Assembly (NCBI GenBank): GCA_038064475.1
Contig: JBBTTA010000002.1
Span: 83,195-147,194, forward strand
Direction of reading: 5' to 3'
Origin: Patescibacteria group bacterium
Lineage (GTDB): Bacteria > Patescibacteriota > Minisyncoccia > Phycocordibacterales > EsbW-18
Length of the DNA: 64,000 nt
Below, one piece after another: positions 1 to 10,110 of the stretch (its first letter is position 1; each line of letters begins with the position of its first letter). Below the pieces are notes generated by a model. It was not told the origin of the DNA and did no database searches. It saw only the letters and a list, made by a program, of their open reading frames with translations. The position numbers and the translations under genes are program-made.

Positions 1-2862
1 TCCCACATTGAAGGTTTCTACTATAAGCCACGCATAGATAAAGAACTTCTTGAAACACACAAAGAAGGGCTCCTTGCTATTATTCCTATCTTCAACGGAG
101 AAACATCTGCACCAATTGTCGGCGGCCGTCCGGACGAAGCCCTCGCAATCGTCAATTTTTATCGGAACCTCTACGGCAACGACAGTGTGTATCTTGAAAT
201 AACACATCACCCTGAAATCGACAATCATCAAGCGCTTGTCGATGCGACAATCAAATTTGGCCGTGAACACAGTGTGCCACTCGTTGCTACAAATGACGTT
301 CAATATATGAAGCCAGACGATGCCCCTGCGCGTCGTACGCTTCTTTCTATCCAATCTGGAGGAGATTTTGGTAGCCGTGGCGGTTTTGGTGACAACGATG
401 CAGATTTTTCATTTGTGAATGGAGAAACAATGCAGGAACGTTTTGCGAATGTTCCTGCAGCAATTGAAAATACACAAAAAATTGCTGATATGTGTAATGT
501 CACGTTCACGCTCGGTGAATGGAAGTTTCCTAACTACATTATTGAATCAGGACGCACTGCAGACGATGAATTTCGCACGCTTGCATACGAAGGAGTGGAG
601 CGGCGAAATTACAATTTCACACCTGAAGCGAAAGAGCGTCTTGAATATGAACTTTCCATCATCGCCAAAAAAGGATATGCGACATATTTTCTCGTCGTGG
701 CAGATCTTCTTCGTGTTGCTCGTGAGCGCGGGATTTTGACAACGATCCGTGGTTCGGTCGCTGGCTCACTCGCAACGTATCTCACCGGCATTACAAACGT
801 AGATCCGCTTGAATACAAATTGCCGTTCGAACGTTTTCTTAATCCTGATCGTCCGTCTGCTCCTGATATCGATATGGATTACGCTGATAATCGTCGTGAT
901 GAAATGATTACGTATGCGCGCGAAAAATATGGTGCGGACAAAGTCGCACAGATTGGTACGTTCGGAACAATGCTTGCGCGCGGCTCGGTGCGCGACGCCG
1001 CGCGCGCCCTCGGCTACGACGTTGGAACTGCTGACGGCATCGCAAAATTAATCCCCCTGGGTTCACAAGGATTCCCCATGACGATTGATCGCGCGCTCAG
1101 AGAAGAAAGTGAGCTCAAGAGAATGTATGAGAATGACGACGATGCCCGCCGCATCATCGATATGGCAAAGAAAATTGAAGGCTGTGCTCGTCACATCTCT
1201 GTACATGCCGCGGGTGTGGTTATTTCGCCAATCCCCCTCATTGAACTCGTCCCTTTGCAGTTTGATACGAAAGGAGAAGAAAAACTCATCACACAATTTG
1301 ATATGCATGCCGTCGGTGAAGACAACGTCGGCCTTCTGAAGTTCGACTTCCTTGGTATTCGAAACCTCGCGATTCTCGCTGATGCCGTCAAGCGCATGAA
1401 AAAGATTTATAACATTGATATCGATATCGAAAATATTCCGCTCGATGACCCAAAGACATTTGCAATGCTTGCGCGCGGCGAAACTGAAGGTCTCTTCCAG
1501 TTGAACGGCAGTGGTATGACCAAGTTCCTCGTTGAACTCAAACCAACAACCATCCACGACATCAACGCCATGGTTGCTCTCTATCGCCCTGGTCCGATCG
1601 AAATGATTCCGGAGTACGTCGCGCGCAAACACGATGCATCAAAGATTCGTTTCCTCGACGAGCGCATGAAATCAATTCTCGATCGTTCATACGGTGTGAT
1701 TACGTATCAGGACGACGTCATGTTGATTGCGATTGAGCTTGGTGGTTTTTCATGGATTGAAGCCGATAAACTCCGCAAAGCCATGGGTAAAAAGATTCCA
1801 GCCCTCATGGAAGAACAAAAAGTGAAGCTCACCGAGGGCTTGGTCAAAAACGGCATGTCACTTCAAAAAGCCGAGGAACTCTGGAAACTCATCGAGCCGT
1901 TTGCCGCGTACGGTTTCAACAAAGCCCATGCCGCAAGTTATGGACGTGTCGCCTACCAAACAGCGTACATGAAAGCGAACTACCCGAGCGTCTATATGGC
2001 ATCAATCCTTACGGCTGAAGCTGGTGATGTTGAGAAAATCGCTGAAATTATTTCAGAATGTAAGCGCATGCACATCGAAGTGTTACCGCCTGACGTCAAC
2101 GAAAGTTTCGGTCCATTTTCTGTGGTGCCAGAAAAAGATGGTGAGCCAGAAAAAATCCGTTTTGGTCTCTACTCAATAAAAAACTTTGGTGAGGGTGTTG
2201 CTGAAGCAATCATCGAAGAACGGAAAGCAAACGGCGTGTACGCATCTCTTGAGGATTTTCTCACACGCGTAAAAGATAAAAACTTAAATAAAAAATCACT
2301 TGAAGCACTTATTCAGTCTGGTGCCTTGGATGCATTCGGCGAACGAGGGCAAATGCTCGCAAACATCGATACGCTCCTCGCCCACCACAAACAATCACTT
2401 GTTTTAAACAAAGAACAAGATAGTTTGTTTGGCGGCGTTATGATGCCATTCTCTGCGCTTCGTTTGAAAGAAGCAGAGCCCGCAACAACGACAGATAAAT
2501 TGCGTTGGGAAAAAGAGTTGCTCGGTTTGTATGTTTCCGGACACCCCTTGGATGCACACAAAAAGTTCATGGATACCACAAATACGAATATTCAAAAGAT
2601 GAAAGGCTTACCACCCGGTGTCACCTCTGTCGTGTACGGTCTTGTTGAAGATGTGCGCGCCATTCTTACAAAAAAAGGTGACAAAATGGCATTCGTAAAA
2701 ATAAGTGATATGTCAGGAACGCTTGAAGTCGTCTTTTTCCCTAAATCATTTGAAGCATCAAAAAGCCTCCTCACTCCTGGTATGTGTCTCGGCATCAAAG
2801 GAAAAATCTCAAGCAGGAATGGTGAACTCTCAATGTTGGCAAACCACGCAAAAACACTCTAG
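1..2862 (+). CDS. dnaE: DNA polymerase III alpha subunit, 5'-partial (runs off window start)
   Basis: Frame 1 is open from nt 1 into ORF 187..2862. PHP and polymerase-core motifs seen (FGTMLARGSVRDAARALGY, HAAGVVIS, YRPGP). Stop TAG at 2860. Confidence 0.9.
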   Translation, partial: SHIEGFYYKPRIDKELLETHKEGLLAIIPIFNGETSAPIVGGRPDEALAIVNFYRNLYGNDSVYLEITHHPEIDNHQALVDATIKFGREHSVPLVATNDVQYMKPDDAPARRTLLSIQSGGDFGSRGGFGDNDADFSFVNGETMQERFANVPAAIENTQKIADMCNVTFTLGEWKFPNYIIESGRTADDEFRTLAYEGVERRNYNFTPEAKERLEYELSIIAKKGYATYFLVVADLLRVARERGILTTIRGSVAGSLATYLTGITNVDPLEYKLPFERFLNPDRPSAPDIDMDYADNRRDEMITYAREKYGADKVAQIGTFGTMLARGSVRDAARALGYDVGTADGIAKLIPLGSQGFPMTIDRALREESELKRMYENDDDARRIIDMAKKIEGCARHISVHAAGVVISPIPLIELVPLQFDTKGEEKLITQFDMHAVGEDNVGLLKFDFLGIRNLAILADAVKRMKKIYNIDIDIENIPLDDPKTFAMLARGETEGLFQLNGSGMTKFLVELKPTTIHDINAMVALYRPGPIEMIPEYVARKHDASKIRFLDERMKSILDRSYGVITYQDDVMLIAIELGGFSWIEADKLRKAMGKKIPALMEEQKVKLTEGLVKNGMSLQKAEELWKLIEPFAAYGFNKAHAASYGRVAYQTAYMKANYPSVYMASILTAEAGDVEKIAEIISECKRMHIEVLPPDVNESFGPFSVVPEKDGEPEKIRFGLYSIKNFGEGVAEAIIEERKANGVYASLEDFLTRVKDKNLNKKSLEALIQSGALDAFGERGQMLANIDTLLAHHKQSLVLNKEQDSLFGGVMMPFSALRLKEAEPATTTDKLRWEKELLGLYVSGHPLDAHKKFMDTTNTNIQKMKGLPPGVTSVVYGLVEDVRAILTKKGDKMAFVKISDMSGTLEVVFFPKSFEASKSLLTPGMCLGIKGKISSRNGELSMLANHAKTL

Positions 2863-3557: not shown

Positions 3558-5315
3558 ATGAAAAAGCACGACATGGCCTCGGATCTTGCGCCTATGCGCC
3601 ACACCCTCGCCCACCTTTTGGCTGCTGTTGTTTTGGATATCTATCCAGACGCCAAACCTACCCTTGGTCCTGCAATTGATACAGGTTTTTACTACGACTT
3701 TGAGTTTTCAAAACCGCTTCAGGAAGATGACCTCAAAAATCTTGAAGAGAAAATGCGTGACCTCCTTCCTTCATGGAAAGAATTTACACATGAAGAAGTT
3801 TCAAAAGAAGACGCACTTAAAAAGTTTGCTGGGAATATTTACAAAGAAGAACTTATCAATGAAATTGTTGAACGAGAAGAAACAATAACACTCTACACAT
3901 GCGGAGGTTTTACTGACCTTTGTCGCGGTGGACACGTTGATCATCCCGCAAAAGATATCGATGTCAACTCTTTCTCTCTTTCACATCTTGCCGGTGCGTA
4001 CTGGCGCGGTGATGAAAAAAACAAAATGCTTACTCGTGTATATGGTTTGGCGTTCACATCAAAAAAAGAACTTGATGCGTACAAAACACAGCAAGAGGAA
4101 GCAAAGAAACGCGACCACCGAAAAATTGGAAAAGAACTTGATTTGTTTACCTTCTCTGACTATGTCGGTAGCGGCCTTCCTCTTTACACACCCCGCGGTG
4201 CCCTCATCAGACGTCTTCTTAACGAATATATTGAATCTCTCCAGTCAAAAGAGGGTTATGAGCAAGTGTGGACGCCTCAGATGGCAAAAGCTTCACTTTT
4301 CAAACAATCAGGACATTACGATAAGTATAAAGACAGCATGTTCCGTGTTGTCTCAAACTACTCTGAGGAAGAGTTTTTCCTCAAGCCAATGAACTGCCCG
4401 CAGCACACTCAGATTTATGCAAGTTCGCCAAAGAGTTATCGAGATTTGCCTGTACGCTACACCGACTTTGCAATGCTCTACCGCGATGAGCAGCCTGGCC
4501 AGTTGAATGGTCTTGCACGTGTTCGTGCTTTCTCTCAAGACGATTGTCATATTTTCTGTCGCGAAGATCAGGTGGATGAGGAAATTGACACTGCACTTTC
4601 AATGACGAAAAAAGTTATGGCGACATTCGGTTTTAAGTATAAATATCGCCTCTCAACAAGAGATCCTAACGATCAGAGCAAATACCTTGGTGACCCTGAC
4701 ACATGGGACAAAGTAGAAGCATGGGCAGAAAAGATAATGAAGCGAAATGATATCGAATATTTCCCTGGCCCAGGCGAAGCATCATTCTATGCACCAAAAA
4801 TGGATCTCTTGGCAACAGATGCGCTTGGGCGAGAATGGCAACTTTCTACAGTACAGATCGACTTTGTGATGCCAGAGCGTTTTGATCTTACCTACACCGA
4901 TAAGGATGGGAAAGAAAAACACCCCGTCATGATTCACCGCGCTATTATCGGTTCTCCCGAGCGATTTATAATGATGCTTTTGGAACACTTTTCCGGCGCT
5001 CTCCCAACATGGCTCTCGCCTGTTCAGGTAAACGTTGTTCCTGTGAGCGAAGAACAATTTGAGTACGCACAGAAAGTAAACGATGTACTCAAGGACAAAG
5101 GCATTCGTGTTGAGTTTGATAATTCAAATGAAGGATTGGGGAAAAAAATCCGCTCATGGAAAGTATCGAAATCTCCATATGCGATTGTTGTTGGCAATAA
5201 AGAGGTTGAAAGCAACACTATTACTGTCGAACATCGCAACGGAACAAAAGAAGTACTTACCGTTGAAGCCTTTACAGAGAAACTCGAAGAAGAAATCAAA
5301 ACTCGCGCCCTCTAG
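3558..5315 (+). CDS. thrS: Threonyl-tRNA synthetase
   Basis: Class II aaRS motifs and a ThrRS-like catalytic core (HRKIGKELDLF, FRDEQPGQLNGLARVR). 585 aa. Confidence 0.9.
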   Translation: MKKHDMASDLAPMRHTLAHLLAAVVLDIYPDAKPTLGPAIDTGFYYDFEFSKPLQEDDLKNLEEKMRDLLPSWKEFTHEEVSKEDALKKFAGNIYKEELINEIVEREETITLYTCGGFTDLCRGGHVDHPAKDIDVNSFSLSHLAGAYWRGDEKNKMLTRVYGLAFTSKKELDAYKTQQEEAKKRDHRKIGKELDLFTFSDYVGSGLPLYTPRGALIRRLLNEYIESLQSKEGYEQVWTPQMAKASLFKQSGHYDKYKDSMFRVVSNYSEEEFFLKPMNCPQHTQIYASSPKSYRDLPVRYTDFAMLYRDEQPGQLNGLARVRAFSQDDCHIFCREDQVDEEIDTALSMTKKVMATFGFKYKYRLSTRDPNDQSKYLGDPDTWDKVEAWAEKIMKRNDIEYFPGPGEASFYAPKMDLLATDALGREWQLSTVQIDFVMPERFDLTYTDKDGKEKHPVMIHRAIIGSPERFIMMLLEHFSGALPTWLSPVQVNVVPVSEEQFEYAQKVNDVLKDKGIRVEFDNSNEGLGKKIRSWKVSKSPYAIVVGNKEVESNTITVEHRNGTKEVLTVEAFTEKLEEEIKTRAL

Positions 5316-6279: not shown

Positions 6280-6594
6280 TCAAAATTCAAATAACTTATC
6301 TGCAAAGTTTTCTATTCTGTCATTCTCATCAACTATAATTCCCTCTTTTTTATAGAGTGCCATACGCTTTTTTCTGTATTCACTGTTCACCCAAATCTTT
6401 CCATCAGCATACACAATGCGATGAAATGGAATCTCTACTCCTTCGTCGGCTGCTTTTCCTAAAATTGAAGTGATTGATTGTGCGGCTATTCCCCCGCTGC
6501 CAGCGGCGCGTGCAATTCGCCCGTATGTTGTCACACGACCTGCCGGAATCTTCTGTGCCGCTTTTACTACCCGCTCACTAAAAGAGTCTTTCAT
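6280..6594 (-). CDS. Alkyltransferase-like (MGMT DNA-binding domain) protein; active-site Cys replaced by Phe (IPFHRIV)
   Basis: TTYGRIA...IPFHRIV aligns with the MGMT C-terminal domain (PCHRV). Start taken at MKDSF (6594) because the upstream ORF extension overlaps tRNA-Glu. Confidence 0.6.
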   Translation of the reverse strand: MKDSFSERVVKAAQKIPAGRVTTYGRIARAAGSGGIAAQSITSILGKAADEGVEIPFHRIVYADGKIWVNSEYRKKRMALYKKEGIIVDENDRIENFADKLFEF

Positions 6595-6599
6595 TTTTG

Positions 6600-6671
6600 T
6601 GACCTCACGGGGAATCGAACCCCGATTACCGCCTTGAGAAGGCGATGTCCTGACCGTTAGACGATGAGGCC
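6600..6671 (-). tRNA. tRNA-Glu (anticodon CUC)
   Basis: Cloverleaf ggcctca/tgaggtc acceptor. Anticodon loop UUCUCAA. Close match to a canonical tRNA-Glu body. No CCA encoded. Confidence 0.85.
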
Positions 6672-6718
6672 GTGCGATTACAATAGCCGAGATATGGCTC
6701 TTTTTCAAGCAAAAATTG

Positions 6719-6986
6719 AGCCGTTGGCCGGGATTGAACCGGCGACCCCGTCCTTCGTGCTACCCACGTTTTTCATTCAAACGAATATTGCGTGGGGCTA
6801 GACTGTATGTCGAGCGTGCAGAGTGCGACGCTTCCCTTGTCAGTCGTTCGAGCCCTCTCAAAAGAGTGCTACGGTCTCAACCTATCGTTAGGCCATTAAC
6901 CGTTATTCGGGATTCGTTTTGAATGTTTCCATCCAAAAGGGCAAGATTTTACCATGGACGTGCTCTACCAACTGAGCTACAACGGC
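6719..6986 (-). tRNA. Split tRNA, probable tRNA-Thr (anticodon GGU), interrupted by a ~195-nt intron after position 36
   Basis: 5' exon gccgttgtagctcagttggtagagcacgtccatggt at 6986..6951. 3' exon aaggacggggtcgccggttcaatcccggccaacggct at 6755..6719. Joined exons give a 7-nt loop auGGUaa. Confidence 0.7.
6756..6950 (-). other. Probable group I self-splicing intron in the tRNA anticodon loop
   Basis: 5' exon ends in U and the intron ends in G (..gtagcacg). GC-rich and structured. GACCGU and CAGUCUAGCC-like elements recall group I P3/P7 regions. Confidence 0.5.
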
Positions 6987-7193
6987 TAGTGAGTGGACTC
7001 GCAGTTTGGGGCGTAGCTTTCGAGAAGCAGGCGTAGCCTTCGAGGGGAGAAAGAAAAGGAAGCTTGTTTACTTTTCTTTTGAATCGAGAAGGTGGGAGCT
7101 TGTATTCGAGAAAGCGGGAACCTGATTAACTATGAGCCACGAGCGAAGACGGTGTATCCGATACAACGGCTTTGCTCCTCCGTATCCTACACG

Positions 7194-7225
7194 AAAAAAC
7201 ACCTCCCGTCAGGAGGTGTTTTTTT
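7194..7225. terminator. Bidirectional rho-independent terminator aaaaaacacctcccgtcaggaggtgttttttt
   Basis: Perfect hairpin flanked by A and T runs. Confidence 0.7.
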
Positions 7226-7239
7226 GAAAAGTATTTCAA

Positions 7240-7932
7240 TTACATCTGCGCAGGAGCAGAAGGTGCAGTCGGTGCTGCGGGAGCAGGAGCAGGCATTGGC
7301 ATTGCTTTTGCCGCAAGCTCGATGTCATCACGACGATCAAGCTTCTTGTAGATATATGTAAGCGCAAGTATCGTCACCGGAATCGTAACGAGAAGTCCAA
7401 CACCAAAGAGAAGCGCGCCGAGAATGTTAATAACAATAGCGACAAGCATAAAACCAAAGAGGTTCCACTTGTGACCATCCGTCAAACGGCGGCTTTCCTT
7501 GAGTGTCTCTACAATACCCATGTGCTTCTCAAGTGTAATAAAGACAACCATTGAGAGCATAAGTTGTGCGATGATGCCTGGAACAATGAGCAATACAAAT
7601 CCGATAACAACAATGACACCGGTAAGGACCATCACAAGCGCAAATTTGTAGAGAGTCTCCCATTTCTCTGCAAACAACATCTTGAAGTTGATTGGGCGAC
7701 CTGCCTGTGCGTTAAGTGCGATGCGTGCGAAGCCAAGGTAAATCCACCACTGCACCAACACACTTACAACATCCACGACCACTTCAATAAGTCCGCCCGC
7801 ATTTTTGCCAATGTTGTCAACGACGATTGAAATAACAAGTGCCACAAGCGCAATACCTCCGTAAAGCCATGGTTCTTTCTTGAACGTGTTCCAGGCAAAC
7901 GTAAGCGCCTCTTTAATTGAAAAAGATTGCAT
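7240..7932 (-). CDS. Integral membrane protein (multi-TM), Pro/Ala-rich C-terminus
   Basis: 230 aa. Hydrophobic helices throughout. Ends ...MPMPAPAPAAPTAPSAPAQM. Confidence 0.55.
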   Translation of the reverse strand: MQSFSIKEALTFAWNTFKKEPWLYGGIALVALVISIVVDNIGKNAGGLIEVVVDVVSVLVQWWIYLGFARIALNAQAGRPINFKMLFAEKWETLYKFALVMVLTGVIVVIGFVLLIVPGIIAQLMLSMVVFITLEKHMGIVETLKESRRLTDGHKWNLFGFMLVAIVINILGALLFGVGLLVTIPVTILALTYIYKKLDRRDDIELAAKAMPMPAPAPAAPTAPSAPAQM

Positions 7933-10038: not shown

Positions 10039-10110
10039 AGCGGGGTAGAGCAGTAGTAGCTCGCAAGGCTCATAACCTTGAGGTCGCAGGTGCAATTCCT
10101 GCCCCCGCAA
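10039..10110 (+). tRNA. tRNA-Met, CAU anticodon, 1:72 A:A mismatch (possible initiator type)
   Basis: Acceptor agcgggg/ccccgca, D-arm gagcagtagtagctc, loop CUCAUAA, T-arm gcaggtgcaattcctgc. Confidence 0.75.

Follow-up and report, generated by a model that had tools for sequence, protein, structure and literature searches.

A compact group I intron predicted in the tRNA-Thr(GGU) gene of a Patescibacteria bacterium

The 64,000-nucleotide stretch of DNA analysed here (the window) comes from a bacterium of the Candidate Phyla Radiation (CPR), and it carries a tRNA-Thr(GGU) gene that is very probably (we would put it at ca. 90%) a live gene interrupted by a group I intron, which would be spliced out of the transcript by its own activity. 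What is directly observed is an intact split tRNA gene together with an insert that has a conserved, covarying group I architecture and both of the canonical boundary bases. The structural features of a group I intron are found in it: a P1 helix with a U·G wobble, a terminal G (omega-G), a P3-P8 core with the P3/P7 pseudoknot, the P4-P6 helices and P9.

The split gene and its surroundings

The gene lies on the minus strand. Its 5' exon (6986..6951, nucleotides 1-36 of the tRNA) reads GCCGUUG-UA-GCUC-AGUUGGUA-GAGC-A-CGUCC-AU-GGU and supplies the acceptor strand, the D arm, the 5' strand of the anticodon stem and loop bases 32-36, with the anticodon GGU at its very end (U36 is position 6951). 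The 3' exon (6755..6719, nucleotides 37-73) reads AA-GGACG-GGGUC-GCCGG-UUCAAUC-CCGGC-CAACGGC-U, i.e., A37 and A38, the 3' strand of the anticodon stem, the variable loop, the T arm, the 3' acceptor strand and a discriminator U, and CCA is not encoded. Between the two lie 195 nt without an ORF (6756..6950), from a first base A at 6950 to the omega-G at 6756, which we assign to a group I intron from a profile of its family, a covariance model of known introns (R1, described below) and covariation. An earlier note on this DNA, made from the sequence alone, had recognized two canonical tRNA halves separated by 195 nt, and this was borne out by reading the sequence, by the canonical 73-nt tRNA-Thr(GGU) fold of the joined exons and by a tRNA search with intron detection, of the kind that the note had proposed, in which ARAGORN with its intron option (-i) returned tRNA-Thr(ggt) i(37,195). 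The output of default ARAGORN and of the Rfam tRNA model for the window contained no tRNA-Thr(GGU) gene. The pre-tRNA folds better than shuffled controls do (z = -3.4), and in this fold the insert is enclosed by paired acceptor and anticodon stems. An antisense ORF of 68 aa that overlaps intron and exon (6716..6922(+)) found no support and was discarded as spurious.

The 158-kb contig encoding the flanking DUF975 protein derives from a Hainich groundwater metagenome (0.1 µm fraction; ENA ERZ1292619, Hain_H41_01um_R2_70), and in NCBI this protein and the threonyl-tRNA synthetase are MEK7606319.1 and MEK7606315.1 of a "Patescibacteria group bacterium" MAG. A bacterial DNA polymerase III alpha is also encoded in the window. 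The threonyl-tRNA synthetase gene (3558-5315 (+); Pfam tRNA-synt_2b, HGTP_anticodon and tRNA_SAD) is located 1.4 kb from tRNA-Thr. A tRNA-Glu(CUC) gene (6599-6671 (-)), which like tRNA-Thr does not encode CCA, is found 47 nt downstream on the same strand, so that both are probably co-transcribed. In one of two tRNA-Met(CAU) genes (10039-10110 (+)) the Rfam alignment sets A against A at 1:72, a non-standard pair reminiscent of initiator tRNAs, in which 1:72 is unpaired. In 29 ORFs of the window, ACC and ACU together represent 27% of the Thr codons, and a tRNA-Thr(GGU) is therefore probably needed.

Because the intron begins with AAAA and the second exon with AA, junctions 36/37, 37/38 and 38/39 all yield an identical mature tRNA, and the contention of the earlier note that only one junction gives a 7-nt loop does not hold. 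Its placement of the intron after nucleotide 36, with U at the end of the 5' exon and G at the end of the intron, does hold, for the window copy as for the relatives described below. In the window copy, U(-1) and a terminal G are both obtained from junction 36/37 only, and the site is fixed at 36/37 by those relatives whose introns have G, U or C as first base (65 of the 105 metagenome copies resolved among the matches listed). These same relatives bear on a very different explanation, namely that we are dealing with an intron of the archaeal/eukaryal type at 37/38, cut by an endonuclease at a bulge-helix-bulge and spliced by proteins. The window copy, with A at the ambiguous bases, would indeed give the same mature tRNA from 37/38, but in the 65 relatives only 36/37 restores the tRNA; besides, the conserved fold is a group I core rather than a bulge-helix-bulge, and the host is a bacterium. 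We regard protein splicing of this kind as extremely improbable.

An intron family at one tRNA site

Relatives of the intron were retrieved from a species-representative genome collection by means of a pattern consisting of a tRNA D arm, xGGU, A and, 3-9 nt later, UGCC. This genome scan returned 107 stretches, in which a script that finds the 3' exon delimited 69 distinct introns, counting the window copy (source contig L001). Their size goes from 169 to 257 nt, with a median of 193, and every one of them follows U36 and ends in G. The members of down to 169 nt agree with the suggestion of the earlier note that the size is near the minimum for group I tRNA introns. Nearly all of the loci with a record title shown belong to Patescibacteria, and the groups represented are Saccharibacteria, Parcubacteria/Paceibacterota, Moranbacteria, Yanofskybacteria and Komeili-, Uhr-, Wolfe-, Sung-, Doudna-, Buchanan- and Gracilibacteria. 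When a profile was built from the 68 other species, i.e., with the window copy excluded, it gave a single match in the window (6954..6753, 108.8 bits, E=6e-33), which makes the window intron a member of the family. It is also the most divergent of the set, differing by at least 31.6% from any relative in the genome collection.

We also scanned metagenomes for two invariant blocks of the core, independently of the host gene, and obtained at least 121 core matches, window copy included. Among the 121 matches listed, 105 could be resolved cleanly: in each a tRNA-Thr(GGU) gene is split at 36/37, the 5' exon ending in U(-1) and the intron in G. Another 14 were recognized as tRNA-Thr(GGU) on visual inspection or are truncated at contig ends, which leaves two outside tRNA genes (119/121 in tRNA-Thr(GGU) 36/37). 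This position is thus, among the matches listed, the almost exclusive home of the intron family. The omega-G is found in 69/69 genome copies and in 105/105 of the resolved metagenome copies among the matches listed, and the same is true of U(-1). The earlier note took a GGU tRNA for an uncommon host, a view that does not stand beside these counts and the setting "Thr.5Ug" (an intron of tRNA-Thr that follows the fifth loop base, with U(-1) and terminal G), already listed by Williams (2020; bioRxiv 10.1101/2020.01.27.920355).

Both exceptions lie in frame in protein genes. One (locus L121, Ga0208465_1000533, 6745-6933 (+)) has an intron with the same core between ...EMKRQMDGG and IKNLSNNMAFELFGSG..., located after GGGGU, to which a guide UGCCC corresponds; a PHROGs search with the protein as spliced gave no family. 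The other (locus L192, Ga0247609_10000292, 72 kb, ca. 1140-1327 (+)) is a family-type intron between ...GLSCGNG and NNGLTNANWNIGGRIF, after ...AACGGU, whose 3' end may be either of two adjacent G bases. A paralogous ORF upstream of it (33-998) matches phrog_17147 (1.7e-76), which makes this probably a phage contig.

The divergence of the exons and that of the introns are weakly correlated (Mantel r=0.17, reached by 2 of 2000 permutations). This weak co-divergence of the sequences would fit a mostly vertical inheritance, without establishing it. Among the retrieved stretches there were also Thr(GGU) half-genes. In seven Saccharibacteria MAGs (L023, L028, L029, L055, L075, L076, L101) a conserved sequence (AAGACCATGGTGCCACCTCTGAAGCGATTTAGGCGG...) comes after the Thr(GGU) 5' half, no 3' exon was found within 3 kb, and L028 has two copies of this arrangement 94 nt apart; these half-genes could represent a longer intron or else tRNA-fragment repeats at an integrated element. 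Five Solirubrobacterales/Thermoleophilia MAGs (L011, L012, L020, L051, L056) have Thr(GGU) 5' halves followed by GC-rich sequence (e.g., AAGGAAGGTGCCGGGGCGG), for which the script found no 3' exon, and in these Actinomycetota the introns may be larger or of another class.

Predicted fold and splicing of the 195-nt intron

The group I structure, P1-P9, was drawn by hand on the window sequence and then counted on an alignment (A2) of the 69 introns, i.e., the 68 other species and the window copy, that MAFFT had built without knowledge of the structure. In P1 (6940..6953, minus strand as all that follow) the exon GGU and the intron AA (6953..6949) pair with the guide UUGCC (6944..6940) around an AAUC loop, with a wobble between U36 and G. 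Across the family the pairs of P1 are G-C in 69/69, G-C in 69/69 and U·G in 68/69, and the fifth one covaries from A-U to G-C. P2 (6915..6939) is a hairpin of 9 bp with a GAAA tetraloop (6929..6926) supported by folding, by R1 and by covariation, with compensatory changes in 9 of the 10 family pairs. The 5' strand of P3, CCC (6909..6911), pairs with 6836..6834 and is followed by the A-rich J3/4, GAAUA (6908..6904). This helix has 3 bp only, of which the middle one changes from C-G to U-A in nine species, and R1 also aligns CCC/GGG as P3. The P4-P5 region extends over 6871..6903: P4 pairs ACGGUU (6903..6898) with GACCGU (6876..6871) and is unvarying save for the last pair, which goes from U·G to C-G, and the P5 hairpin (6894..6879), preceded by J4/5 AAU, covaries at 4/5 pairs. 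P6 (6851..6870) is the hairpin AGCACUCU-UUUG-AGAGGGCU, with family covariation in 4/5 pairs.

The core continues with J6/7, CGA, and the 5' strand of P7, A-(bulged C)-GACUG (6841..6850), both invariant in 69/69. This strand pairs with 6805..6800 to form the putative guanosine-binding helix, which RNAalifold found unaided and which has the form of the classical one, where G-C and A-U come after a bulged base; the matching columns of a curated alignment of known introns read G-(A)-GACUA / UAGUC-C. After J7/3 (ACAA), the 3' strand of P3, GGG (6834..6836), closes the P3/P7 pseudoknot according to the pair count on A2. All 4 base pairs of the P8 hairpin (6812..6833) covary. J8/7, GACAUA, and the 3' strand of P7, CAGUCU (6800..6811), resemble the classical group I element AAGAUAUAGUCC; the J8/7-P7' element AUACAGUCUA is invariant in 69/69 and is aligned by R1 to the J8/7-P7' consensus, and the longer stretch reads AAGAUACAGUCU in the family and GACAUACAGUCU in the window copy, both close to the classical sequence. 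Finally, P9 (6756..6796) pairs CCCAC (6796..6792) with GUGGG (6767..6763) and contains an inner hairpin, after which comes the 3' tail UAGCACG ending in omega-G. A sixth pair of P9, G6791-C6768, is found in the window copy only; the family count uses five pairs, of which 4/5 covary. Two alternative pairings were rejected. A P7 made of GGGC (6854..6851) with GCCC competes with GACUG/CAGUC, which is invariant, predicted by RNAalifold and aligned with the curated P7, and a P3 made of CCCUU with AAGGG overlaps the P1 guide, and it is CCC/GGG that covaries instead.

On A2, 95.2% of 3,377 cells hold standard pairs, compared with 29-44% when the 3' partners are slid by 1-3 columns and 79.8% when columns are shuffled. 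At 28 of the 49 pairs both sides have changed, in 563 cells in all. The score for covariation reaches 0.437, compared with 0.138 in shuffled columns, and none of 500 shuffles reaches any of the observed measures. The covariation is rich in P2, P5, P6, P8 and P9. The pairing of P4 and P7, invariant in the family, is consistent with the data and unproven by covariation. RNAalifold, with no structure supplied, placed P1, P2, P4, P5, P6, P7, P8 and P9 at the same columns, and P3 is missing from its output because a pseudoknot is outside its representation. There are 55 invariant columns, mostly in CCCGAAUAACGGUUAA, AGACCGU, CGAACGACUG-CAA--G and A-AUACAGUCUA. The core junctions, P4 and P7 are invariant though the introns differ by 33% on average between species, and we argue from this strict conservation that the ribozyme is under selection. 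The group I fold put forward in the earlier note is upheld, its P3-P9 core being recovered from covariation in the 69 homologous introns together with the R1 matches to relatives.

Conservation also weighs on the question of whether the gene is alive. The window copy could have been a pseudogene, with a decayed intron that is no longer removed and an inactive tRNA-Thr(GGU), as might be suspected from its being the most divergent copy and the one with the lowest R1 score; in addition, the genomes of the CPR are of the reduced type, where reading of the ACN codons might be left to a UGU tRNA. However, all 55 family-invariant positions are present in it and all its helices are intact save for one A·G mismatch in P6, although it departs from the family at a few near-invariant junction bases (A60U; J8/7 of GACAUA vs. 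AAGAUA). Both exons are intact and canonical and ACY codons are in use. A pseudogene is therefore very unlikely, and a live gene with a spliced intron is the reading that we retain.

A motif resembling the 11-nt receptor (CUAAG...UAUG) is present in P8 in 23 of the 40 introns with a GAAA loop on P2 and in 0 of the 26 with other loops (Fisher p = 4e-7). A contact between P2 loop and P8 receptor, typical of group I tertiary structure, is likely, from this association, in many members of the family. The window copy has GAAA on P2, and the CUAAG..UAUG motif is missing from its P8. One could imagine from this lack of a receptor to dock the GAAA loop, from the 3 bp of P3 and from the very small size of the ribozyme (195 nt here, down to 169 nt in relatives) that the intron has lost the capacity to splice unaided and needs a protein as cofactor or chaperone, which would be a variant within our main explanation. 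Nevertheless, the intron has no ORF, no conserved neighbouring gene was seen, and the curated set of Williams includes tRNA introns of comparably small size (191-205 nt), that of Azoarcus among them. We consider such dependence unlikely, and favour an intron that splices itself.

The reaction would proceed as follows. The guide UUGCC would pair with the anticodon GGU and the first two intron bases to form P1, in which the 5' splice site would be marked by the U36·G wobble. In P7 (GACUG/CAGUC), the G-C pair beside the bulged C would bind an exogenous guanosine, and this would attack after U36. The terminal G (6756) would then occupy the same P7 site and the freed 3'-OH of U36 would attack the bond before A37, so that the exons would be joined into the 73-nt tRNA and the intron released. 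The catalytic core would be formed by the A-rich J3/4, J4/5, J6/7 and J8/7 and the P3/P7 pseudoknot, and modification of A37 and addition of CCA would take place only after splicing.

Known group I introns and the place of the new family

The check with Intron_gpI that the earlier note had proposed was negative: this Rfam 15 model (RF00028) matched nothing in the window at its gathering score, and on 6650-7050 a search relaxed to E<=10 still did not bring it up, the output being limited to part of a tRNA and a CRISPR repeat matched by chance. At the gathering score it also left unmatched the Thr introns of 18 relatives. It did find another intron in one of the loci (L050) at 78.9 bits, which indicates that library and method work. 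An nhmmer profile of 26 curated bacterial tRNA/tmRNA group I introns likewise gave nothing at the window intron. R1 was derived from the curated 26-sequence alignment with structure deposited by Williams (2020), trimmed to its consensus columns; it covers P1-P6 and P8 and includes no member of the family. With default filters R1 had no match in the window. With the filters off, on both strands of 6400..7300, its best match was 6954..6799 (-), at 15.7 bits and E=5.8e-5 for 0.9 kb, in which P1 (UGGUAAAAUC-UUGCC), P2-GAAA, P3 (CCC/GGG), P8 and the J8/7-P7' element ACAUACAGUCUA are aligned as we had placed them by hand and P4-P6 are skipped. By itself this model match would be weak support for a group I identity. 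Among the 68 relatives, R1 with default filters matched about 27 of the Thr introns full-length and at the intron coordinates, with 21-43 bits and E-values of 1e-3 to 5e-10, and it also picked up three classical introns elsewhere in the relatives' loci, at 59-84 bits. Classical group I introns are thus found in CPR loci that also have a Thr intron (L050 2780-3021 (-), directly downstream of the Thr gene; L089 878-1066 (-); L008 2566-2751 (-)). The failure to score in Rfam is in our view a property of the seed of that model and not of the class. Lui et al. (PMC8172020) note that group I introns are frequent in CPR tRNAs.

The window copy is found in the very setting of Thr.5Ug, i.e., the same host, the fifth-loop-base site, U(-1) and omega-G. 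The seed of this type, Rba53.Thr.5Ug, resembles it in its tRNA-Thr(GGU) host and its insertion after the fifth loop base, and in both, U(-1) and a terminal G are combined with a P1 of GGUA/UGCC type. However, this seed has a classical core (GUAGAGACCA and AAGGGAUGGUCC) and a long P8/P9, whereas the window family has CGAACGACUG and AAGAUACAGUCU and shorter helices, and the family shows no detectable sequence-profile similarity to the curated introns, Rba53.Thr.5Ug included. More generally, the Thr.5Ug and IC3 seeds have cores GUAGAGACUA and AAGGGAUAGUCC, in contrast to the CGAACGACUG and AAGAUACAGUCU of a family that escapes Rfam. In size, the family goes down to 169 nt compared with 191-205 nt for the shortest curated seeds. 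Around J3/4, P4 and P6 there is a close local likeness to the seeds Mba143.Tyr.4Ug and Pgr210.Thr.2Ug (GAUAACGGUGAA...ACCGUGG, against GAAUAACGGUUAA...ACCGUAG in the window), which differ in their sites (Tyr position 4 and Thr position 2), in a P7 of GACUA/UAGUC and in being longer.

The intron in the tRNA-Ile(CAU) of Azoarcus (IC3; Aol6.Ile2.5Ug) also follows nucleotide 36, has no ORF and shares with the window copy P1, a P2 with GAAA loop, the P3/P7 pseudoknot, P4-P6, P8 and P9. This intron self-splices robustly. It differs in its host tRNA and guide, in its 205 nt and in its longer P5, P6 and P9, the window copy having 195 nt and no P8 receptor motif. When the comparison is extended to IC3 as a whole, the association of L2 GAAA with a P8 receptor is present in the family, though the window copy is without the receptor, and the core sequences differ from those of the IC3 seeds. 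The intron in the tRNA-Leu(UAA) of cyanobacteria and plastids likewise belongs to group I and interrupts an anticodon loop; unlike that of the window, it lies inside the anticodon (34/35), measures about 250 nt and is detected by Rfam. It is ancient and has been inherited mostly vertically at a single tRNA site.

Judged from the sequences, and with Thr.5Ug represented in the comparison by one seed, the window intron is a new, divergent and very compact addition to a known intron type. We do not claim a new mechanism, since the Thr.5Ug setting was already in the 2020 preprint. A broader reading, to which we would give somewhat less than even odds, is that the window copy belongs to a distinct and undescribed group I subclass, ultra-compact, with its own core, invisible to Rfam, fixed at CPR tRNA-Thr(GGU) 36/37 and with relatives in phage genes. 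Stated in detail, and still tentatively, such a subclass would be typically of 169-200 nt and would have the invariant core signature CGAACGACUGACAAGGG ... AAGAUACAGUCUAA. It might further, though we hold this with no greater confidence, be spread across much of the CPR, with occasional in-frame relatives after GGU codons of phage protein genes. If this subclass is real, the smallest group I ribozymes in nature would be among its members (our literature search gave no usable citable statement on the smallest group I intron), and it would explain the apparently missing tRNA-Thr(GGU) genes of CPR genomes.

There are practical consequences for annotation. In intron mode, ARAGORN places the intron one to three bases off in about half of the listed metagenome tRNA copies (L114-L233) and thereby mislabels them as Arg(gcg), Pro(ggg), His(gtg/atg), Leu(gag) or Phe(gaa). 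According to its authors, tRNAscan-SE 2.0 was not designed for group I introns (PMC8450103). As the gene is missed by default ARAGORN and by the tRNA and Intron_gpI models of Rfam, CPR genomes can be expected to appear often to be without tRNA-Thr(GGU). The errors of ARAGORN in intron mode on this tRNA amount to a systematic annotation hazard.

The known mechanism of splicing is left unchanged by this family of tRNA-Thr(GGU) introns. What the family offers for studies of minimal ribozymes and of folding is dozens of natural group I ribozymes of very small size (169-200 nt) whose invariant core is well defined. Moreover, with one tRNA site occupied across many CPR lineages and rare relatives in phage genes, it is a tractable case for studying how introns persist and move in reduced genomes.
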